Shown here: positions 4,483-45,914 of the stretch, one piece after another
Numbering within the stretch: position 1 is the first letter of the stretch
Layout of the letters: each line of letters starts with the position of its first letter
IMG/VR virus record: IMGVR_UViG_3300045988_041103
Direction: 5' to 3' (one strand)
Source: a virus
Length of the DNA: 45,914 bases
Program-made: the position numbers and the translations under genes
The notes under the pieces: generated by a model
Seen by the model: the letters and a program-made list of their open reading frames with translations, nothing else
Databases searched by the model: none
Told to the model about the DNA's origin: nothing

Positions 4483-4881
4483 TTATGCTCCGATCAAACC
4501 GGCGATATGGCGCAAATCCTCCACAGGCCCATTGTAGAAGTCAAAGTTCCAAATCCAATGATCTTCATGCTCCGGGCGCTTGTACTTTTGGCATCGGGCA
4601 TCTTCCCAAACCTTGTTCCACCGGGCCTGATACCCGGAATCCCGCTTTTGCAGTCTGGAAAGAATGCGCCCAACCAGATCACCCCGTTCCCGGCCCATCC
4701 CATCATCATTCTGACTGAAGAAATCATAGGCGTTTTGGCTGGTGATCCCGCAAAGCGGTTTGTTCTGGTGCATCAAAAAACCGTCCTGACAGATCAGGGC
4801 GGTTCCATAGGGAATATTCACTTGGCCTGAAATGCCGTCAAACCTTGCCCGTTTTCGGCACAGATAATTTTTATACTGCAT
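4483..4881 (-). CDS. Hypothetical protein
   Basis: 132-aa ORF packed between the tail-fibre accessory gene and the lysis genes. No motif recognised. Confidence 0.5.
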   Translation of the reverse strand: MQYKNYLCRKRARFDGISGQVNIPYGTALICQDGFLMHQNKPLCGITSQNAYDFFSQNDDGMGRERGDLVGRILSRLQKRDSGYQARWNKVWEDARCQKYKRPEHEDHWIWNFDFYNGPVEDLRHIAGLIGA

Positions 4882-5488
4882 CGGTTACTTCCTCCCAACC
4901 ATACACACCCGGTTCCCAAACATTGTTATCCACGATGGAAACCCAATGCTTTTCATTGTGGGCAACTTTCGCCCCGCTGGAATAGGCATCATGCGCCCCC
5001 ACCGGCTGTGCCCAAGCGGGCCATTCTTCGGCGGGATTGGCGGTCAGGCTCCACAGGCTGGAAGCGGTGTCCGGTGTCCAGTCAGCTTGGGAAGTGTGAT
5101 CCTGAACGCACTTGTAAAGCACCCCACTAAAACGGCGGATTTGGCCGGTTTTGTAGGCGATAGGATAGGCCCATTCAGCAAACAGTTCAGCGTGTTCCGC
5201 CGCTGTTTCAGGATCAATGTTCCCGGCTTCTGCCATAGTTACGAACACGATTCCACCAGCTTCAGTAGCCTTGATGATCTCCATACCACCATCAGCTTCT
5301 TCCAAACTGACGGTTTCAACCCCGTCCAAACCTGTTCTTCCAAGCAAGTGATAAACGGTGCCGCCAAAAACAATGCCCGAAGCATCAGGCTCCGGGCAAA
5401 GGACATAGCAACCATTTTCGGCTTGTTTGATATAGTTCAGATTTTCAGTTAGGCCAATAGAGGCCCCGTTTTTGATGATTCTAAACAT
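4871..5488 (-). CDS. Tail-fibre-associated protein with two CBM5/12-like carbohydrate-binding motifs
   Basis: YKCVQDHTSQADWTPDTASSLW and HWVSIVDNNVWEPGVYGW resemble aromatic CBM5/12 repeats. The position matches xkdW/xkdX after the fibre. Confidence 0.5.
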   Translation of the reverse strand: MFRIIKNGASIGLTENLNYIKQAENGCYVLCPEPDASGIVFGGTVYHLLGRTGLDGVETVSLEEADGGMEIIKATEAGGIVFVTMAEAGNIDPETAAEHAELFAEWAYPIAYKTGQIRRFSGVLYKCVQDHTSQADWTPDTASSLWSLTANPAEEWPAWAQPVGAHDAYSSGAKVAHNEKHWVSIVDNNVWEPGVYGWEEVTDAV

Positions 5489-6648
5489 TCCGCACCTCCG
5501 AAAAAGATAGCATGATACAGCCGCCGCAAACGCAATGACCGCCCATGATCATTGAAGTTCCGGTAATATGCGCTTTGGCATTCCATGTACTGTTCAATAT
5601 CAAAGAAGGTTCTTTTTCCCTCTTTGAATTCTTTGTGAAATAGCTTCAGCTTTCGCCTTGCCCGTTTCACTCCATCCCGGCTTCCATTCACTTTCACCTT
5701 TCCGGTTTCGGTCAATGTAAATCGGGCCTTACAAAACCGAAACGGCTTTGTAAGTGGGATCACTTTGCATTTCCGCTTGTTCACCCGAATTCCAGCGGCT
5801 TCAAACCGTCTTACAATTTCATGCCCCATGAACTTTGCTTCATCAACACTGGGGAAGGTCATAAGGTAATCATCCATGTAATGGGCTTCATAGTCCACAC
5901 GGGCCTGACATTTGATCCAGTGATCAATTTTGCTGGGCATGGCAACCATTTCTTGTTGTGATGGTTCCACACCCAAAGGCATTCCCCGGCCCGGTGTTGG
6001 ACATGGTGAATATTGAATGACGGTATCAGCAATTCTTTGAAGATCAGGGTTCAAGATCAATTCCCGGTGCCGCTGGTAAAGAATTTCATGGGGTGCATTG
6101 GGAAAGAACCCTTTCAAATCAATCAGTAAAACGGCCCCTTCCCGACCATAGCGCCGATAATGCCAATGAAGCTGTTCCTTCAGCCGTTTATAGTGCCAGT
6201 GAAGGCCCTTATTCTTCTGTGAAGCCCCGTTTTCATAGATCATACAGGGGTTATACAACGGCACAAGAACTTCATTGCAAAGGGTCTTGTGAATTTGCCG
6301 ATCTGTGATATGCGGCGCATCAATAGGCCGTACCTTTCCACGCTCCCGAAGGGTGAAATGGGTACAGCTTTTTGGTTTCCATGTTCCATCCAATACTTCC
6401 CGCCGCCGTTTGGCTGTTCCTGAAAATAGGTGGGCTTCAAAGTTTTGAACACTTTGCTTCCACCGCACCCCATTACAGCACTTACGGCCATAGAAAAACA
6501 TTTTCCGGTAACTGAAAACCTGATTCACCGATCCAAGGCTATCAGATCGGGCTTGTTTCTTTGCTTGCCGCTTTGCTTTGCGACGCTGGTAGCGGGCTTC
6601 CCGCCGTTCCTGACTGTTCATAATTAAAAAAGTATTCGCCTTTCGCAC
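5449..6648 (-). CDS. DGR-type reverse transcriptase
   Basis: RERGKVRPIDAP (motif 1/2), YENGASQKNKG (the SQ motif typical of DGR RTs), LLIDLKGFF, and YMDD at 5869-5880. The start is either GTG 6648 or ATG 6621; neither has a clear SD. Confidence 0.9.
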   Translation of the reverse strand: MRKANTFLIMNSQERREARYQRRKAKRQAKKQARSDSLGSVNQVFSYRKMFFYGRKCCNGVRWKQSVQNFEAHLFSGTAKRRREVLDGTWKPKSCTHFTLRERGKVRPIDAPHITDRQIHKTLCNEVLVPLYNPCMIYENGASQKNKGLHWHYKRLKEQLHWHYRRYGREGAVLLIDLKGFFPNAPHEILYQRHRELILNPDLQRIADTVIQYSPCPTPGRGMPLGVEPSQQEMVAMPSKIDHWIKCQARVDYEAHYMDDYLMTFPSVDEAKFMGHEIVRRFEAAGIRVNKRKCKVIPLTKPFRFCKARFTLTETGKVKVNGSRDGVKRARRKLKLFHKEFKEGKRTFFDIEQYMECQSAYYRNFNDHGRSLRLRRLYHAIFFGGAECLESSKTGPLLA

Positions 6649-6920
6649 AGATAAATTGTAGGGTGCCTTCTAATCTGCTTTACCCATACACATGAAATGG
6701 GCTATGGCACATTCGCCCACCATGCAAGAAGCGTCCGTGCATGGGTGTCAAAAGAAAGGGTATCGGCTATAAAATAGATTATACCCCATCCCGCTTTCCC
6801 AAGCGGGGCAGTTTTAGGGATTAGCTACCCAAGGAAGTATCTCTCCTTTTACATCGGTCATCCTTCACCTGAAGCCCAAAGCCGGGTTTCTGTTACTACA
6901 TTCGACCGTGTATATTTGCA
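6649..6920 (-). ncRNA. DGR spacer: ORF-free, structured region between TR and RT (part of the TR RNA)
   Basis: There is no ORF on the minus strand. Stem-loops occur at e.g. 6790-6807 (CCCGCTT/AAGCGGG), 6718-6747 and 6662-6710. The position equals that of the BPP-1 Sp region. Confidence 0.55.
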
Positions 6921-7039
6921 AAATCCGGGCCGCAACCCACCAGAATTATTAGCATTGTTATTGTTGTAGTTGCCATCAGTCCAGACAATAACGAAATTGT
7001 TGTTGTTATTGTAATTAGGGGAGCGGAGCCACCACCAAA
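6921..7039 (-). repeat. DGR template repeat (TR), 119 bp
   Basis: Aligns without gaps to 7967-8085. Contains 32 coding-strand adenines and is rich in AAC/AAT codons. The ORF-track entry 6858..7055 (NNNNN-rich) is this element. Confidence 0.92.
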
Positions 7040-7081
7040 CCGCCGAAGGAAGCATTCATAGAGATACACCTAATTTTGAAG

Positions 7082-7546
7082 TTAAGATTTCATTTTTGCA
7101 CTTACATTTTTGATTGCCCCTTTCAAAAGTTCGTTTTCCTTGTCGATCAGTTCGCCTAAATTTTGGGCCATCTTATCCAGCTTTTCAATAGCGTCATTGG
7201 ATTTCACCGCAACCCCTTTGGAAGTGGTAAAAGCCCCTTCAGGGTTTTGGTTCAAAATCAGGTAAACATGGGTAAGGCGCACATCCAGCGCCATCAGGGA
7301 AGCCCTTGCTTCCAGCAAGTGGGCCTTCCGCAATTCAATCCGTTGAACATCAGAAGGAAAAATGCTGTTGGCCTTTTCCGCATGATCAATGATTTCACCC
7401 GCCAGCTTTGCAACGGGTTCCGCTATCAGGCGGGAATACCTTGCAGAAAGGCGGGTAAGAAAATTGATGGTTTCAACATAGATTTGGTTGGCCGTATTGA
7501 TGAATTCAGCCTTACTTGTGGTTCTCTTTTGCTTTAAGACAGACAT
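7082..7546 (-). CDS. Avd-like accessory variability determinant (helical bundle protein)
   Basis: 154 aa, predicted all-helical and basic. Lies between VR and TR exactly where avd sits in BPP-1-type DGRs. Sequence similarity to four-helix-bundle proteins is only recalled. Confidence 0.6.
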   Translation of the reverse strand: MSVLKQKRTTSKAEFINTANQIYVETINFLTRLSARYSRLIAEPVAKLAGEIIDHAEKANSIFPSDVQRIELRKAHLLEARASLMALDVRLTHVYLILNQNPEGAFTTSKGVAVKSNDAIEKLDKMAQNLGELIDKENELLKGAIKNVSAKMKS

Positions 7547-7549
7547 TGC

Positions 7550-7738
7550 TTATACCTCTTTGGATGAACCGTCAGCTTTGATCACACCTTGTTCATCTTC
7601 AATTTCCTTCAAATGCTTCAAAAGCACGAATTCAATATAATTGGTTACAGAACGATGTTCACGGGTAGCAAGTACACCGATTTTATCAAAGACTTCATCC
7701 GAAAGGCGTAAAGTAAAAACTTTCTTATTGGTTGCCAT
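7550..7738 (-). CDS. Ribbon-helix-helix (Arc/CopG-like) DNA-binding protein inside the DGR cassette
   Basis: KKVFTLRLSDEVFDKIGVLATREHRSVTNYIEFVLLKHL fits the beta-strand/helix/helix RHH pattern. 62 aa. Confidence 0.7.
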   Translation of the reverse strand: MATNKKVFTLRLSDEVFDKIGVLATREHRSVTNYIEFVLLKHLKEIEDEQGVIKADGSSKEV

Positions 7739-7909
7739 ACAATACCCCCTTGAAACCGGTCTTATAGATATTGTATGGCGGAAGTTGCGTTTTGTATGCC
7801 TTCACTTACCTGTCAAATGATAGCACTTTGAAGAAAAGTCGATTTTTCAAAATTTCGTCGGGCGGCTTACGCCGCCATTCTTATTTTTCTTTGGGGGTCC
7901 CTCCCGGAA

Positions 7910-7929
7910 CCGCCCCCTTCCGGGGGCGG
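7910..7929 (-). promoter_or_regulatory. GC hairpin 3' of VR (DGR target-recognition hairpin candidate)
   Basis: 8-bp stem CCGCCCCC (7910-7917) pairs with GGGGGCGG (7922-7929). The 4-nt loop reads GGAA on the coding strand. It lies 37 nt beyond the last VR/TR-homologous base. Confidence 0.7.
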
Positions 7930-7957
7930 GATAAGGCCGGGATCATCCTGCGGGGGA

Positions 7958-9844
7958 TTAGGCGGCAAAGCCGGGCCGCAACCCACCAGAACCATAAGCA
8001 TCGCTAATGCTGTAGGTGCCATCAGTCCAGACAAAAACGAAAGAGTTGTTGCTACCGTAATAAGGGGAGCGGAGCCACCACCAAAACCCCCCCCTCCCCC
8101 GCCCCCCCCCCCAACCCGCCGTATTCACGGCGGTATGATTATTGGCAACCTTACTGTTACCAGCCTTATAATAAGCATACTGCTGTTGGCTGTTCTGCTC
8201 ATATTGGTTGGCGTAGTTTCTTACTCCAAACACTTCAAATTCGGCCAGATCAAACAGGTAATCCCTTGTGGCGGTAACATTGCCCGCACTATTGGAAGAA
8301 TTGCCCGTGTTATCAGTATATTTGGTTACAGGTTGCATCACGGCCCGAAGGTCAGCCGGAAGCGCCGCCATCAAGCTATTGCTGATTGGGCTGGTGGGGG
8401 TGCCAGTGTTTCCATACAAGGTTTTCCGTTTGGAACAGCCATTCCAGCCACCAGCATTGGTGTTGGAATCATTCATGTGGAAATAGCCAGCCCCGCTTAT
8501 ACTATTACCATACTTTGCATCACACAGCGCCACAGGGGTTGTTCCCATCTTTCCAATCTGGAAGTGAATCAGATTGTTGCCTTCCTTGGCGGCATTGTGA
8601 TTGAACCCGATGATGAAAACATTGATCTTCAAATTGCTAAAGGTGTGGTTGCCAACTTTACCATTGATGGTGATTTCTTTCATATCACCCACAGCCCAAT
8701 AGTTGGCACCCAAACCGGCGCTACTCACTTCCCGAATGGTGGCCCAATCATTATCAGAAAGGTTTTTGGTGGGCATGGTCACTTCAACCGAACAGGTTTT
8801 ATTTGCCGGGGCGTTGTGATTGGTGCCAGCGGCCACAGAAACCGTGATTGTAGCCTTTCCCTTGGCCTTGGCGGTAACTGTTACCGTGTTGCCCGAAACG
8901 CTCACAGAAGCCACGCCAGACGCATTAGAAGTGGCCGTAATAACACCGTCACCGGCTCTGGTAACTGTGATGGTGTCTGTTTTCTTGGCGGCGGTCAGCT
9001 TCATGGAAGTTTTATTCAAAGACAAACTTCCAGCGGCCTTCCCAATTCTCCAAACCACAGTTTTTGTACCGGTGCTTCCATCACTCCATTTGTAGTTTGC
9101 ACTGGGGGTAAAGGTGGCGTTATAGCTTCCCGCATTGGTGCCTGTGGTAGTTCCTCCAAGGGTCATTTTCCCGGTGTCATACCCCGACCAAGAAGGGCTT
9201 TGCGGGGAACCATTGAAGGTAAGGCTTCCGCTTTGGGTAGGTGCCGCCATAGAAGCCCGGTCAATCTTCCATGTAACCTGTTTTGCGGTCTTGGTGCCAT
9301 CACTCCATTGATATTTTTCCTTGGGGGTGAAGGTGGCCGTATAAGTCCCGGCATCGGTGCCGGTAGTCACTCCCCCAAGGGTCATGGCGTTAGGATCATA
9401 GCTGTTCCAAGAAGGGCTTTGGGCCTGTCCGTTATAGGTCAGAACACCGTTTTGAGTGGGAACCGCATTGATGGTGAAAGCGATCTTGGACACAGCTTCC
9501 AAGGCCGCATCTGCGGCATCTTGGGCATTCTGCGCCGCTGTCACACAGGTTTCAATCTGCCCCAACAAATAGGGGTGGGCTTTCTTGTTTCCATCGTGGG
9601 TGGTTACAACCTGTTCAGCGGTGCCCTTTGCTTCATAGTCCATAGTGGGAAGCTGTTCAGCGGGAACCTTCCCACCCACCAAATCAGCCTTGTTTTTCTG
9701 CCCATCCTGAAGGTCTTTGATACCATCGGCATTGGTTTTCATTTGGGCATCAATCTTGTCCATGTTGCCATTCTGAACTTCAACATCATAAAATTCAGAA
9801 GCAAGGGGTTTGGTCAGCCCATAGTTTGTGGTTTGATTGGGCAT
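7958..9844 (-). CDS. Tail fibre / receptor-binding protein, DGR target
   Basis: 628 aa. The N-terminus is phage fibre-like. It contains two tandem ~72-aa repeats, a Big_2-like segment (TITVTRAGDG...ATITVSVAAG), and a C-terminal domain ending in WWWLRSP...VWTDG...GGLRPGFAA that carries VR. Occupies the xkdV position. Confidence 0.9.
   Translation of the reverse strand: MPNQTTNYGLTKPLASEFYDVEVQNGNMDKIDAQMKTNADGIKDLQDGQKNKADLVGGKVPAEQLPTMDYEAKGTAEQVVTTHDGNKKAHPYLLGQIETCVTAAQNAQDAADAALEAVSKIAFTINAVPTQNGVLTYNGQAQSPSWNSYDPNAMTLGGVTTGTDAGTYTATFTPKEKYQWSDGTKTAKQVTWKIDRASMAAPTQSGSLTFNGSPQSPSWSGYDTGKMTLGGTTTGTNAGSYNATFTPSANYKWSDGSTGTKTVVWRIGKAAGSLSLNKTSMKLTAAKKTDTITVTRAGDGVITATSNASGVASVSVSGNTVTVTAKAKGKATITVSVAAGTNHNAPANKTCSVEVTMPTKNLSDNDWATIREVSSAGLGANYWAVGDMKEITINGKVGNHTFSNLKINVFIIGFNHNAAKEGNNLIHFQIGKMGTTPVALCDAKYGNSISGAGYFHMNDSNTNAGGWNGCSKRKTLYGNTGTPTSPISNSLMAALPADLRAVMQPVTKYTDNTGNSSNSAGNVTATRDYLFDLAEFEVFGVRNYANQYEQNSQQQYAYYKAGNSKVANNHTAVNTAGWGGGRGRGGFWWWLRSPYYGSNNSFVFVWTDGTYSISDAYGSGGLRPGFAA
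7967..8085 (-). repeat. DGR variable repeat (VR), last 119 bp of the tail-fibre ORF
   Basis: There are 16 mismatches to TR, all at plus-strand T (coding-strand A) of TR. The A-free 3' stretch TCTGGTGGGTTGCGGCCCGG is identical in both copies. Confidence 0.92.
9029..9460 (-). repeat. Tandem duplication (2 x ~215 bp) encoding two Ig-like repeats of the fibre
   Basis: Residues 129-200 (PTQNGVLTYNGQAQSPSW...) and 202-272 (PTQSGSLTFNGSPQSPSW...) align at roughly half identity. Confidence 0.7.
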
Positions 9845-24984: not shown

Positions 24985-25067
24985 TGGTGCCGGGTATGGG
25001 ACTTGAACCCATACGCCAAAGGCGGCGGATTTTGAATCCGCTGTGTCTGCCATTCCACCAACCCGGC
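24985..25067 (-). tRNA. tRNA-Leu: tRNA-Leu (anticodon CAA), class II with a long variable arm, encoded CCA
   Basis: Folded manually: acceptor GCCGGGT/ACCCGGC, anticodon stem GCGGA/TCCGC with loop TTCAAAA, T arm ATGGG-TTCAAGT-CCCAT, 3' ACCA. Confidence 0.9.
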
Positions 25068-25070
25068 AAG

Positions 25071-25145
25071 TGGTAGCGTGTACGGGGGTCGAACCCGTGT
25101 TCCCGGCTTGAAGGGCCGGTGTCTTAACCGCTTGACTAACACGCC
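25071..25145 (-). tRNA. tRNA-Glu: tRNA-Glu (anticodon TTC), encoded CCA
   Basis: Acceptor GGCGTGT/ACACGCT, anticodon stem CCGGC/GCCGG with loop CCTTCAA, T arm ACGGG-TTCGACC-CCCGT. Confidence 0.9.
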
Positions 25146-26740: not shown

Positions 26741-26914
26741 TCAATCACCATCCTTTCTCTCTTGGGGGGGGGGCTGAAATCCAATGGGGCGCTGTCTGGT
26801 TTTCTCCAAGGTCAGCGTTTGGTTTGAAAGTTCCACTTCAATCTTCAAAGACTGGTAGGGAAGCCGATCCGCCCACTGTTCAATTTTCTTCAAAATGTGC
26901 TGTTGTTCAAACAT
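26741..26914 (-). CDS. Small hypothetical protein between terL and portal
   Basis: ATG 26914 has AGAAAGGAA upstream. The coding-strand C10 tract lies near its 3' end. Confidence 0.45.
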   Translation of the reverse strand: MFEQQHILKKIEQWADRLPYQSLKIEVELSNQTLTLEKTRQRPIGFQPPPQERKDGD

Positions 26915-31958: not shown

Positions 31959-32540
31959 TCAGTTAAACCATTTGATCACCGGATCACCGGTGAAGCCTTT
32001 TTCCCACACATACCACGCATAGGCTATGGCGCTGTCTGTTTTGCTCATATCCCCGTTCTTATAACAGGCCAGCCGGGAACGGGAAATATAAACTGTTCGG
32101 GGGGGGGTACTCTTGAAGAATAGCCCCCGCTTTTGTCCCTCCAAAAATTGAACCTTCAGGAACATAGCCACTTTCCCACCGGGCCTGACGCTTTCAAGCG
32201 CCTTCTGAACAAATTCAAGGCCCATTGAGTACGGCGGGTTTGTGATTATGTCCCCTTCAAATCCTTCAAGGGTTTCCGTCAGGAAGTCCAACGGTTCAGG
32301 ATCACCAAACCCACGGTAAATCAAATCTGTGGAAATGACTTCATATCCGTGGGCCTGAAGCACCTTGGAAATGTGGCCTTCCCCACAGGCCGGTTCCCAT
32401 ATCACCGGGGCAAAGGGTTCCAGTTCCAGCAATAGTTCCACGGCCTTTGGGTCGGTTGCATAATAATCATGCTGTTCCCGTTCTTCCAAGGCGTGGTTGG
32501 AAGCGCCCAAGGTGGTGAATATGCTGTTCTGATTTCTCAT
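31959..32540 (-). CDS. Orphan N6-adenine DNA methyltransferase
   Basis: Motif I EPACGEG, motif IV NPPY. No restriction partner lies nearby. It contains a coding-strand C9 tract (plus-strand G9, 32099-32107). Confidence 0.8.
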   Translation of the reverse strand: MRNQNSIFTTLGASNHALEEREQHDYYATDPKAVELLLELEPFAPVIWEPACGEGHISKVLQAHGYEVISTDLIYRGFGDPEPLDFLTETLEGFEGDIITNPPYSMGLEFVQKALESVRPGGKVAMFLKVQFLEGQKRGLFFKSTPPRTVYISRSRLACYKNGDMSKTDSAIAYAWYVWEKGFTGDPVIKWFN

Positions 32541-34438: not shown

Positions 34439-36259
34439 TCAAATCCCCCCCCCAACCTGTTTAATTCCAAAGTCATTCAGGCGATCCCACGCCATTTTGA
34501 TGTAATAGCCTTTATCCAGTTCATCCGGGATCGGCATACCGCATACATCGTCATTGATGATGAAACAGTGATCCGGGGTGTTGGCAAACTGTTCAGGGTT
34601 CTTTTCCCGGCCTTTGATGATCTTACCGGAAACCTTGAATAATCCGCCTTTGCTGTGGTCTTTGGAAGCAAACACCCGGAATGTTTTATCTGTCTGAACC
34701 TCACCCCCGCTGAACCGCTTCACAGTTTTTGAGCGGCCCTTATCATCCCTGATCTTTTCAAGGGTGATGGTGGGGGAATAAATGGCATATTTGTATTTGC
34801 TGGAAACCTTCACAACCTTCTGGAAGTCCCGCAAATCAGAACATTCCATGATGGTTTTTTCCGGTGGAATATCGTAAAGGAAGAAGTTCACAATGGCCCG
34901 GTTGACAATGGGAAGATCATAATCCAGATCAGACAGCTTTTTGACATAAGCGCCCTTGCATTTCCACCGGGGTTTTCCCTTTTCATCAACCAACGGCCCA
35001 TCGGGAACCACCAGATAATTGTTCACATCCTTCTGATACACCCGCCTGAATTCATCGAATTCCAGCCGCATACCAGTTCTTTCTTCCCACTCCCAACAAA
35101 TATCATCAATCAATTCATAATCGTCATAGTGACGCAGTTTGATCAAGATACCATCGGTGTTGCTCTGGATAATGTCACAGTGATCTTCCAACCGTTCAAT
35201 CAAATCCAGCAAGAGAAGCTGACCGCCCACACAGACATTGTTTGCTTGCCGGGGGTCATACATGGCATTGTGGCGATCCTTCATGGCTCCATAGGTGGAA
35301 TTCAGAACGATTTTGTAAGGCTGTTGCATGGGGTTCTTTTCGGCCTTCAGCTTCAACCGGGTATGATAGATTTCTTCATACTTGGACGGATCAGCCACAT
35401 TCCGGGAAATCCATTTATAAACCAGCATCAAGGATGGATAATAGGAAGCCACATCCACATTGATGAAGTAACCTTCCCCGAAATATTGCGGAATTGCTCC
35501 GTGCAAACCTCCCCAAGCGAATACATGGGGAACCCCGGCAACCTCAATTTCAAGGGCCTTGGAATAGTCCCGGTTCAGAGGATTTTTATACCAGTTCAAA
35601 ACCTCTGTATATTTTTCAATCCGCAAGGTTCCGGGAAGTTGAAGTTCAAATTCATCATCATGATCCCGCTGAACAGCCCCAAGGATTTTGGCGGAAAGCT
35701 GTGCCTTTGTGCGCCCAATATCCGATATGGGAAGGCTGAAGGCTTTCACAAGGGACATTTGGGCATCAAATTCATCTTCTTTGCGCCTTAACCACACTTC
35801 AACGGTTTCTTCCACATCATGGCGGCAGTATTTAACCGTTTCCTGAATCTCCGCTTCTGTCAATGGCCGGTCAATATCAAAAGGAACACTGGTTTCCTTG
35901 ATGGAATGCCCCATGAATGCTTCCAGCGTTTTCAAGCTGATAGGTGGATTGGGTATCACATCATAATTGATCACCGGGAAATTCCTGAACAGGCTTGAAA
36001 ACCTGTAACCGGGTTTATCTTCAAGAATGATCCAATCATTCACATCCTTGGGGTTGAACCCACACAGGATTCCTTTCAGAATGTATTGGTCATAATTTCG
36101 GCTGTTGTACCCGGCCCAAATGGTTCCTTTGTGCTTCTCATAGAAGCGCCGCAACTGATCAGGATCATTGATGATCACGGTTTCTTTCTTTTCGGTCAGG
36201 TCGATGAAAACAACCATCCAATCATACTTGAAAACCTCAAAGTCATAGAAGATCATCAT
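34439..36259 (-). CDS. Family-B-like DNA polymerase with a 3'-5' exonuclease domain
   Basis: Exo motifs YDFEV, NSRNYDQYIL and YCRHDVEE. Pol motifs DVASYYPSLM and KIVLNSTYGAM. Motif C reads SNTDG (N where DTD is usual). The start ATG 36259 is preceded by GGGTGA; the ORF track begins at 36430. Confidence 0.8.
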   Translation of the reverse strand: MMIFYDFEVFKYDWMVVFIDLTEKKETVIINDPDQLRRFYEKHKGTIWAGYNSRNYDQYILKGILCGFNPKDVNDWIILEDKPGYRFSSLFRNFPVINYDVIPNPPISLKTLEAFMGHSIKETSVPFDIDRPLTEAEIQETVKYCRHDVEETVEVWLRRKEDEFDAQMSLVKAFSLPISDIGRTKAQLSAKILGAVQRDHDDEFELQLPGTLRIEKYTEVLNWYKNPLNRDYSKALEIEVAGVPHVFAWGGLHGAIPQYFGEGYFINVDVASYYPSLMLVYKWISRNVADPSKYEEIYHTRLKLKAEKNPMQQPYKIVLNSTYGAMKDRHNAMYDPRQANNVCVGGQLLLLDLIERLEDHCDIIQSNTDGILIKLRHYDDYELIDDICWEWEERTGMRLEFDEFRRVYQKDVNNYLVVPDGPLVDEKGKPRWKCKGAYVKKLSDLDYDLPIVNRAIVNFFLYDIPPEKTIMECSDLRDFQKVVKVSSKYKYAIYSPTITLEKIRDDKGRSKTVKRFSGGEVQTDKTFRVFASKDHSKGGLFKVSGKIIKGREKNPEQFANTPDHCFIINDDVCGMPIPDELDKGYYIKMAWDRLNDFGIKQVGGGI

Positions 36260-36925: not shown

Positions 36926-37312
36926 TTAAAGGGTTTTCAGAAGATCAGCCAACCCACCAAACAGGGTATCAAGCACCTTGGCCGCTTTGTCAGCCGTTTC
37001 CTTGGCCCTGTTCATGTTGTCAACTTCTTCTTTCGTAGGGGAAAAACCACCATCAGGAATGAACAGATCATCAGGAAGAACGGTGTTCAGCAGATGATCA
37101 AGGGCCGCATCCGCCATCACATCACAGAAATCTTCATGATGTTCAGCGTAATTCCGAATGGCGATCTTGGCGGCGGAACGATGAAGTTCGATCAGGGCTT
37201 CACCATCAGCACCGGGCGGGGGGGGGATCAGGTTGGCGCACACCTGAATCTTGCGGAACAGGCCACGCTTGTTCATTTCTTCTTTGAAATGGTTCAGGGC
37301 ATCGTTTTTCAT
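36926..37312 (-). CDS. Hypothetical protein
   Basis: 128-aa ORF. Contains a coding-strand C9 tract (PPPP) at 37218-37226. Confidence 0.5.
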   Translation of the reverse strand: MKNDALNHFKEEMNKRGLFRKIQVCANLIPPPPGADGEALIELHRSAAKIAIRNYAEHHEDFCDVMADAALDHLLNTVLPDDLFIPDGGFSPTKEEVDNMNRAKETADKAAKVLDTLFGGLADLLKTL

Positions 37313-45747: not shown

Positions 45748-45844
45748 GAACAGATAGAACAGATATTTTTCCTATCTCTGATATATTATTTTATATTTTT
45801 TTATATTTTGATTTGAATAATATAGCATCTGTTCCATCTGTTCC
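45748..45844. repeat. GAACAGATA x2 (45748-45765), 61-bp AT-rich spacer, ATCTGTTCC x2 (45827-45844)
   Basis: Read directly. It continues into 68-86 of the next unit and is a paralogue of 29380-29484. Confidence 0.9.
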
Positions 45845-45914
45845 ATTCAAAGATTTTCAAGAGATTTCAGGCATTTTCAGCAGAACAGATCAGAACACAT
45901 AAGCAAAAAAAAAT
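45816..45914. repeat. Terminal direct repeat copy 2 (identical to 1..99)
   Basis: Read directly. Confidence 0.95.

Follow-up and report, generated by a model that had tools for sequence, protein, structure and literature searches.

No natural system diversifies proteins more powerfully than diversity-generating retroelements (DGRs), which are concentrated in gut phages. The DGR of Bordetella phage BPP-1 has the order mtd/avd/template repeat (TR)/brt, and its ribonucleoprotein contains a TR:Sp duplex and a stem-loop just downstream of the TR (bioRxiv 10.1101/2023.10.23.563531). Cornuault et al. (2018) described the DGR of phage FP_Taranis, in which no Avd homologue was detected and the function of the target was unknown (PMC5883640), and a 2024 study found read-level variation of the variable repeat (VR) in phages Roos and Pioen, with the VR at the C-terminus of DUF6273 (PMC11792537). 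Weinberg et al. (2017) reported RT-2 as a motif near reverse transcriptase (RT) genes, ascribed the RT-10 motif to the DGR of BPP-1, and offered as speculation that further RT motifs belong to DGRs (PMC5737381). Here we analyse a DGR cassette on the minus strand, between positions 5449 and 9844, of a 45,914-nucleotide virus sequence (IMG/VR record IMGVR_UViG_3300045988_041103; "the window" denotes this whole stretch). We put at roughly 90% the probability that this region is a functional or very recently functional DGR of the FP_Taranis type. The type is already published in Faecalibacterium phages, and the cassette is a good example of it, not a new kind; its main value is the light that it sheds on the RT-2 RNA and on an unrecognised family of accessory proteins.

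All six parts that a first-pass annotation had assigned to the cassette were recovered from the list of open reading frames (ORFs) and a repeat search, on the minus strand and at the coordinates it had given; adjustments to the extent or identity of some of them are described below. The parts are:

7958..9844, minus strand: DGR target gene, a tail fibre of 628 aa (ORF, DUF6273 and synteny)
7971..8085, minus strand: VR core, encoding residues ~587-624 (FWWWLRSP...GGLRPG), with mismatches to the TR at adenines
7550..7738, minus strand: 62-aa putative ribbon-helix-helix (RHH; Arc/CopG-like) protein (PHROG Arc-like repressor, E 7.6e-7)
7082..7546, minus strand: 154-aa basic accessory protein in the Avd position, a predicted four-helix bundle
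6925..7045, minus strand: TR, with its core at 6925-7039; the CGGCGG at 7040-7045 is also found in the VR of relatives
6618..6910, minus strand: structured noncoding RNA, Rfam RT-2 (RF03077), which fills the gap between TR and RT (136 bits)
5449..6621, minus strand: DGR RT, 390 aa from ATG 6621 (RVT_1, phrog_1423 and a match to the BPP-1 DGR RT, bRT); the ORF reaches GTG 6648

Adenine-specific variation and the reverse transcriptase

The repeat search returned one 124-nt direct repeat, 6921-7044 and 7967-8090, with 85% identity. When its core is read on the coding strand (TR 7039..6925 against VR 8085..7971) there are 15 mismatches, and 15 of 15 fall at TR adenines; since adenine makes up 26% of the TR, the probability of such a result is ~1e-9, and the pattern is not due to chance. 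The non-adenine differences between TR and VR number two, both at the ragged 5' edge. The first-pass annotation had recognised the right element but had drawn the VR as 7967-8085, where the core is 7971-8085. No second VR was found when the whole window was scanned with the TR, its adenines treated as wildcards. In the reading frame of the VR, the 31 adenines of the TR fall in 18 codons, 13 of them AAY and five with a single adenine. Substitution of these adenines can never create a stop codon, and they allow ~10^18.7 DNA variants and 10^18.3 protein variants.

We retrieved 80 IMG/VR loci with close relatives of the 154-aa protein, of which 45 complete cassettes were used for TR/VR comparison. 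Each of the 45 has 9-22 TR/VR mismatches, with 668 of the 697 in total at TR adenines. Twelve contigs that share one identical TR (Group 1) carry 12 distinct VRs, polymorphic at 32/33 TR-adenine columns versus 2/82 other columns; eight contigs that share another (Group 2) carry eight distinct VRs, polymorphic at 35/36 TR-adenine columns versus 1/79 others. Group 2 contigs diverge pairwise by 16.6% across the VR, against 0.7% over the preceding 600 nt of the target gene, 0.9% over the accessory gene and 0 over the TR. The assemblies themselves carry a trace of this variation: among 38 contigs whose upstream flank is truncated, 30 stop in the VR/RHH interval and several start within the VR, which we attribute to VR microdiversity disrupting the assemblies. 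Because many VRs accompany an identical TR and vary at adenine columns, the Taranis-type DGR lineage is active, as observed in the population data from these close relatives. Hypervariability of the VR beside an invariant TR had been proposed as a check of the first-pass annotation, and on the relatives' contigs (12 VRs for one TR, and eight for another) the lineage displays it.

The downstream edge of the VR coincides with a shared stretch free of adenine:

7971..7991, minus strand: A-free, GC-rich 3' end common to VR and TR, TTCTGGTGGGTTGCGGCCCGG, 21 nt (read from the alignment)

Past this end the sequences diverge, continuing as CTTTGCCGCC in the VR and as ATTTTGCAAA in the TR, and the boundary between the A-free end and the divergence is also kept in Taranis and in the 45 relatives. 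To judge by its sequence, this arrangement is an IMH/IMH*-like (initiation of mutagenic homing) boundary. One base past the shared CCCGG, at 6924/7970, lies a 16th difference, A in the TR and C in the VR. We considered this base as the first to be mutagenised in the ordinary way and rejected it, as the VR has C in nearly all relatives and no mixture is seen. Three loci (L008, L061 and L080) have A at the position equivalent to 7970, which suggests that information transfer occasionally extends one base further.

The RT matches Pfam RVT_1 (E 2e-12) and the PHROGs family phrog_1423 'reverse transcriptase' (E 9e-73), and carries the motifs RERGKVRPIDAP, NGASQKNKG and YMDD. Its ORF, 6648..5449, comprises 399 aa when counted from GTG, as had been annotated; the ORF holds but the full length probably does not, as the likeness of MNSQERRE to MTSQERHE in Taranis indicates that translation probably starts at ATG 6621 and yields 390 aa. 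The best solved relative is bRT (8ub7_A, E 1.7e-8), with a group II intron RT at E 6e-3. When the window RT is aligned with bRT and its Taranis homologue, the DGR-diagnostic [LIV]GxxxSQ motif falls at LGVEPSQ, opposite IGSLTSQ of bRT, and the bRT residues F66, R74, I76, D138, G182, S186, Q187, D215 and D216 prove to be conserved in the window RT. The first-pass annotation had called a DGR RT from an SQ motif in NGASQKNKG; the conclusion stands, given the closeness to bRT and the presence of LGxxxSQ and YMDD, but that segment is a different one and reads NGASRIGKG in Taranis. Both the window and Taranis RTs also have an Arg/Lys-rich N-terminal extension of ~23 aa (6621-6550, minus strand), which bRT lacks and which may be an extra RNA-binding element.

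RT-2 RNA, the accessory protein and the RHH gene

The match to RT-2 spans the full-length model (136 bits, where the gathering score is 40; E 5e-33), and the copy in the window has a 63-nt insertion in one hairpin. The interval between TR and RT, first annotated as an ORF-free spacer of 272 nt, is indeed noncoding, but it measures ~300 nt from ATG 6621 and is no plain spacer, being the RT-2 RNA. RT-2 follows the TR at the same offset in all 14 of the relatives tested; the model for Phage_DGR (RF03022) matched neither the window nor these 14, and matched BPP-1 alone.

An alignment of 24 cassettes, examined against shuffled and slid controls, supports three helices that involve the TR and its surroundings:

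7067..7060 with 6844..6837, minus strand: helix 1, 5' strand GUAUCUCU with AGAGAUAC; 98.4% of cells paired, 6 of 8 pairs compensatory
6923..6917 with 6853..6847, minus strand: helix 2, TR 3' flank UUUUGCA with UGUAAAA; 96.4% paired, G-U/A-U/G-C interchange and one compensatory pair
6908..6904 with 6859..6855, minus strand: helix 3, the RT-2 P1 hairpin just past the TR; 97.5% paired, 2 of 5 pairs compensatory

Taken jointly, the three were not equalled in score by any of 500 shuffles, and the slid controls had 40-55% of cells paired. Helix 1 is 8 bp long, with its 5' strand ~15 nt upstream of the TR, and closes the TR into a loop; the AGAGAUAC segment is annotated as single-stranded in RT-2 and here pairs with the site upstream of the TR. 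Covariation is weaker in helix 2 than in helix 1, and both helices are intact in the window. On the basis of covariation, the helices have the architecture of a BPP-1-type DGR RNA. By analogy with that RNA they may act as stop and primer elements: helix 2 is a candidate template-primer duplex, in which the last A of the AAAA run (A6847) would prime cDNA synthesis.

The helices also distinguish two of the related loci. In L054 (IMGVR_UViG_3300045988_039026) the upstream helix strand GCGTGACT is mismatched to its RT-2 partner AGAGGTAC; this cassette is recombinant or chimeric, and may be non-functional. L005 (IMGVR_UViG_3300045988_012085) encodes accessory and RHH proteins that are 100% identical to those of the window and an RT that is 99.7% identical; its TR and VR, the two strands of the helix around the TR, and the C-terminus of its target, a protein with 77% identity, belong to another type. 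Judged from these sequences, the unit of TR, VR and helix seems to be swapped as a module.

The 154-aa protein upstream of the TR has no match in Pfam, NCBIfam or PADLOC, and belongs to a large family, which forms 1,545 clusters at 90% identity and has 380 representatives when clustered at 50% (E<=1e-3). None of 42 family members matches bAvd (PF22296) or 23S_rRNA_IVP (PF05635) at E<=1. Two distant relatives have full-length matches to PF05635 that are sub-threshold (E 1.4e-4 with 22.5 bits, where the cut-off is 33.8, and E 0.042). Searches of the PDB by phmmer and by profile, with the protein or its family, retrieved no Avd, and hhalign of the family gave a probability of 0.3% for bAvd and 0.2% for a 22-sequence bAvd alignment. 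The name avd given at first therefore finds no support in these Pfam, PDB profile and hhalign comparisons; what agrees is position, basic charge and predicted fold. The isoelectric point (pI) is 9.45, with a family mean of 8.6 +/- 0.95, and AlphaFold2 run with an alignment predicts four long helices with a predicted local distance difference test (pLDDT) score of 92.8. A single-sequence AlphaFold model (pLDDT 80.7, three helices) conflicts with the alignment-based one and was dropped. Foldseek matched the model to Xcc0516 (2gsc, TM-score 0.79), to BPP-1 Avd in its ribonucleoprotein (8ub7_C, TM-score 0.50) and to four viral 'Avd-like' models (E 7e-3 to 5e-2); all fold E-values lie at 0.007-0.5 and are non-significant, helical bundles being generic. 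We also ruled out the CH1 accessory family (Wu et al. 2018), which is acidic (pI ~4.7) where the 154-aa protein is basic.

The genomic association of this family is clearer than its ancestry. Scanning IMG/VR for the invariant RT-2 core gave 79 loci, and 65 of the 68 with enough upstream sequence have a member of the accessory family upstream, even where the RT is just 25-40% identical to that of the window, so the family constantly accompanies both the RT-2 RNA and these RTs. We treat the 154-aa protein as the functional counterpart of Avd, with which it may or may not share ancestry. A broader proposal is tentative and on balance doubtful: that the accessory protein co-evolves with the RT-2 RNA as a separate module for DGR reverse transcription, common in the gut phages of Firmicutes, numbering 380 or more clusters at 50% identity, and unrelated to Avd or too divergent to be recognised, in which an RHH autoregulator was gained in one sub-clade and possibly switches mutagenesis. 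A minor addition to this proposal is that a G-rich insertion at the VR edge, described below, is perhaps the scar of aberrant cDNA-end joining with non-templated addition.

The RHH ORF lies 3 nt upstream of the accessory gene. Besides the PHROG match listed above, its product weakly matches Pfam RHH_7 (23.3 bits, cut-off 27) and Arc (16.3, cut-off 20.4) and an NCBIfam RelB-like model (23, cut-off 50). Of 47 complete related cassettes, 37 have the gene and 10 lack it, and among the wider RT-2 loci it is confined to the clade with RTs at least 65% identical. The 10 cassettes without it still have adenine-only mismatches, so RHH is dispensable for mutagenesis; as an optional gene it may be regulatory rather than core machinery, and that it autoregulates the DGR operon is a reasonable guess. 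Upstream lies a possible control element:

7817..7825, minus strand: extended -10-like box TGCTATCAT, conserved in RHH-containing relatives

From its sequence and conservation, this box is the probable promoter of an operon comprising RHH, accessory gene, TR, RNA and RT; a scan of the sequence for the sigma-70 consensus found no more sites than in shuffled sequence, and did not call the TGCTATCAT box. In RHH-containing cassettes the box is followed by a module of ~245 nt with GCATAC / (C/T)ATA(C/T)AAT motifs and the RHH gene, and in RHH-less relatives a TTGGCT-17-TGcTATACT promoter stands directly before the accessory gene.

The target gene and competing explanations

The 628-aa target begins with an N-terminal region, continues with two repeats of ~73 aa and a segment that is Ig-like (Big_2-like), and ends in a C-terminal DUF6273 domain, which scores 47 bits (E 3.5e-12; cut-off 23.5) and holds the VR. 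Its ORF overlaps an XkdU-like (Mu gp48-like) gene by 1 nt, with a Baseplate_J gene before that, and this overlap with the baseplate gene places the target in the XkdV fibre position. The target shares 54.7% identity with FP_Taranis gp68, whose annotation is 'DGR target', and a protein search of phage collections returned FP_Taranis, Roos and Pioen at ~55% identity. DUF6273 membership and the literature suggest a possible C-type-lectin fold for the VR domain, as the first-pass annotation had proposed; neither a PDB profile search with 11 target C-termini nor hhalign against Mtd recovered such a fold from sequence.

Hairpins flank the VR on both sides:

8116..8133, minus strand: GC hairpin in coding sequence, CCGCCG-N6-CGGCGG, immediately 5' of the VR homology, conserved
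7910..7929, minus strand: GC-rich 8-bp hairpin with a GNRA tetraloop, CCGCCCCC-GGAA-GGGGGCGG, 41 nt downstream of the VR
7861..7876, minus strand: terminator-like hairpin GGCGGC-GTAA-GCCGCC, then a T-rich tract, kept in relatives

The hairpin past the VR reads CCGCCGCC-GAAA-GGCGGCGG in relatives, a compensatory change, and GCCCAC-GGAA-GTGGGC in Taranis; by analogy it would be the counterpart of the BPP-1 target-site hairpin. In one relative (L035, IMGVR_UViG_3300007222_000061) it is replaced by a scrambled, C/G-rich, low-complexity stretch, which indicates that such GC hairpins attract sequencing or assembly errors. The hairpin at 7861..7876 is, from its sequence, the probable end of the fibre transcript. 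That at 8116..8133 has a stem that is invariant and a loop that varies among relatives, with no covariation.

Between this last hairpin and the VR core the window has a feature of its own:

8086..8115, minus strand: 30-nt G-rich in-frame insertion GTTGGGGGGGGGGGCGGGGGAGGGGGGGGT, which adds ~GWGGGRGRGG and is unique to the window

The insertion carries runs of G11, G5 and G8, and splits a TR/VR homology that is continuous in all relatives. It occurs in 0 of 45 related cassettes, no contig in viral or metagenome collections has an insertion of 10-40 nt at this site, and no record of the exact 628-aa protein was found. The simplest reading is a sequencing or assembly artefact or a private mutation; it might be a retrohoming scar.

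The claim that the window holds a complete DGR directed at a tail fibre is borne out by the adenine-specific mismatches, the bRT-like RT, the synteny with Taranis and the VR-only variation of relatives. Five characters by which a DGR is recognised are present: the TR/VR adenine pattern, the RT motifs, a 3' VR with stop-free codons, an IMH-like boundary with a GC hairpin, and hypervariable VRs in relatives. Several points pull the other way. The bRT residue I181 is replaced by L in the window RT; the accessory protein cannot be linked to Avd by sequence; the VR heterogeneity seen is that of relatives' contigs, so that ongoing activity in this particular phage is an extrapolation; the G-rich insertion, if real, could impair integration of the cDNA 3' end; and the role of the target as a host-receptor binder is drawn solely from synteny (the XkdV position) and domain family.

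We weighed three other accounts against these data. It is scarcely credible that the RT is of some other bacterial kind (retron, group II intron or Abi/DRT defence) and that the 124-nt repeat is an unrelated duplication. Generic RT models do match (NCBIfam group II RT, 52.7 bits, and Drt3a, 27.7 bits; PADLOC generic RT, 50 bits), but the scores are far under the family cut-offs (300 and 200 bits), the retron model reaches 15 bits, an Rfam scan gives RT-2 alone and no intron RNA domains, and a plain duplication cannot yield adenine-only mismatches together with the population data. Distinctly unlikely, if less far-fetched, is a decaying or inactive DGR in this genome, with TR, VR and RT persisting after retrohoming ceased through the G-rich insertion or unseen defects. 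The insertion does lie within the TR/VR homology and is found in the window alone, some published relatives were without read-level activity at the time of sampling (PMC11792537), and the mismatched TR-enclosing helix of L054 demonstrates that broken copies exist. Here, however, all ORFs are intact, the RT has its catalytic residues, both RNA helices are preserved, and the insertion is possibly an assembly artefact; moreover, the VR core has no non-adenine drift from the TR, which argues for a recent copying event.

The remaining account concerns what is diversified. We think it unlikely, but a more serious contender than decay, that the protein is an adhesin for other ligands (mucus glycans, non-host surfaces) and that the DGR tunes adherence and not host range. 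The Taranis target was given no function in Cornuault 2018 (PMC5883640) and is distinct from the annotated tail fibre of that phage, gp65; decoration proteins of the Hoc-like or 'tentaclin' sort are also among DUF6273 targets, and the window target weakly matches a Hoc-like PHROG. Against this, the target comes directly after the XkdU-like gene, in the XkdV fibre position, with no other fibre gene before the lysis module, and the Pioen homologue has an N-terminal domain similar to the Listeria phage A511 tail fibre gp105 (PMC11792537).

If the cassette is a working Taranis-type DGR that varies a fibre, it could operate as follows. Transcription of one operon (RHH, accessory protein, TR, RT-2 RNA, RT) would start at a promoter immediately 3' of the fibre gene. 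The transcript would fold so that the 8-bp helix, from ~15 nt upstream of the TR to the RT-2 region, encloses the TR, and the TR 3' flank would form a short duplex with the spacer. The RT and the basic four-helix accessory protein would copy the TR to cDNA, misincorporating opposite adenines, and the cDNA would replace the VR at the 3' end of the fibre gene, targeted by the A-free GC-rich boundary and the downstream GC hairpin. In this way 18 codons (13 AAY) of the C-terminal DUF6273 would be recoded, giving ~10^18 variants and never a stop codon, and the fibre tip would be expected to recognise other ligands or hosts. In this scheme we infer where priming occurs, what the accessory protein does, that RHH is a regulator and that tropism switches.

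Genome context and comparison with known systems

The two ends of the window, 1-99 and 45816-45914, form a 99-bp exact direct repeat, so the window is a circularly complete genome of ~45.8 kb. The phage is a circularly complete 45.8-kb temperate myovirus of gut Oscillospiraceae. Its genes include an integrase, an amidase endolysin and replication genes, and for head and packaging a terminase, an SPP1-type portal and a Mu F-like protein. The tail module has the Pfam order Phage_sheath, DUF2001 (tube), TMP_3, LysM, YQBQ (E 1e-109), DUF2577, Sheath_initiator, Baseplate_J and Phage_Mu_Gp48; this order is that of the PBSX/SKIN-like contractile tail module (sheath, tube, TMP, LysM protein, YqbQ/XkdQ, XkdR, XkdS, Baseplate_J as XkdT, XkdU-like gene, then fibre), and the first-pass description of a PBSX-like myovirus holds. 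No cultured phage is close to the genome outside the DGR cassette, megablast matches being small metagenomic fragments alone, and the nearest cultured terminase, that of Bacillus phage phi4B1, is 55% identical. Relatives of the cassette are prophages in Pseudoflavonifractor, Faecousia, Faecalibacterium, Colidextribacter and other Oscillospiraceae.

Some further features of the window and its relatives stand apart from the cassette. Genes for tRNA-Leu(CAA) and tRNA-Glu(UUC) lie at 24985-25145 (minus strand), flanked by the genes for the Mu F-like head protein and the portal. At 5374-5398 (minus strand), ~50 nt past the RT stop, a hairpin and T-run resemble a terminator; they lie inside the predicted 5' end of ORF 5488..4871, which encodes a 205-aa CBM_5_12 carbohydrate-binding protein and overlaps the RT by 40 nt; the true start of that ORF may be further downstream. 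Apart from the runs in the G-rich insertion, there are five more G/C homopolymers of 9-10 nt (2094-2102, 26764-26773, 32099-32107, 34445-34453 and 37218-37226), where far fewer than one would be expected, by a rough estimate, in a 46-kb genome of 48% GC. At least those at 32099-32107 and 37218-37226 are within ORFs on the listed coordinates, and all could be slippage-prone tracts or a platform artefact. Near the cassette of a Faecalibacterium prausnitzii UT1 prophage (L099) lies a DUF3800-VIII RNA (Rfam RF03075; 8388-8450 of that locus), which has no relation to the DGR.

The closest described system is that of FP_Taranis (NC_047914), along with Roos and Pioen, which has the same order: a DUF6273 target with a 3' VR, an Arc-like RHH gene, a ~152-aa hypothetical protein, TR, RT-2 and RT. 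Identities between the window and FP_Taranis are 54% for the target, 82% for RHH (gp69, 'Arc-like repressor'), 76% for the accessory protein and 66% for the RT. The two also share the IMH-like boundary and a GGAA-loop hairpin past the VR, and their hosts are in the same bacterial family. They differ in phage backbone and in TR sequence; the target of the window is a fibre gene right after the baseplate genes with a longer N-terminal part, and the window alone has the 30-nt G-rich insertion. The cassette adds a clean, complete example of a tail-fibre DGR, in an uncultured Oscillospiraceae myovirus.

With the BPP-1 system (mtd/avd/TR/brt) the window shares a target with its VR, a small basic accessory gene, a TR, a structured RNA and an RT, as well as adenine-specific mismatches, AAY codons in the TR, a GNRA-looped GC hairpin past the VR, and the active-site and mutagenesis residues of the RT. 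The helices of the window correspond in kind to features of the BPP-1 DGR ribonucleoprotein (bioRxiv 10.1101/2023.10.23.563531). The layout had first been described as BPP-1-type, and in the order target-VR, accessory gene, TR and RT it is; a strict match is precluded by the additional, dispensable RHH gene. Other differences go deeper: the accessory protein has no detectable sequence similarity to bAvd, the target is a DUF6273 protein with no similarity to Mtd, the RT has the basic N-terminal extension of ~23 aa, and the RNA is RT-2 where that of BPP-1 is Phage_DGR (RF03022). In BPP-1 the hairpin CGGGGCC-GAAA-GGCCCCG comes right after mtd, whereas that of the window is 41 nt past the VR and not adjacent.

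These comparisons pin a large unannotated protein family as the constant partner of RT-2 in the Avd position, and RT-2, this family and the optional RHH gene provide constructs with which to ask whether DGR reverse transcription needs an Avd-type protein. RT-2 as published is a motif near RT genes; here it stands between TR and RT in every cassette examined, which gives an orphan Rfam motif its place as the DGR RNA of the Taranis-type lineage, with a covarying helix that encloses the TR as in BPP-1.

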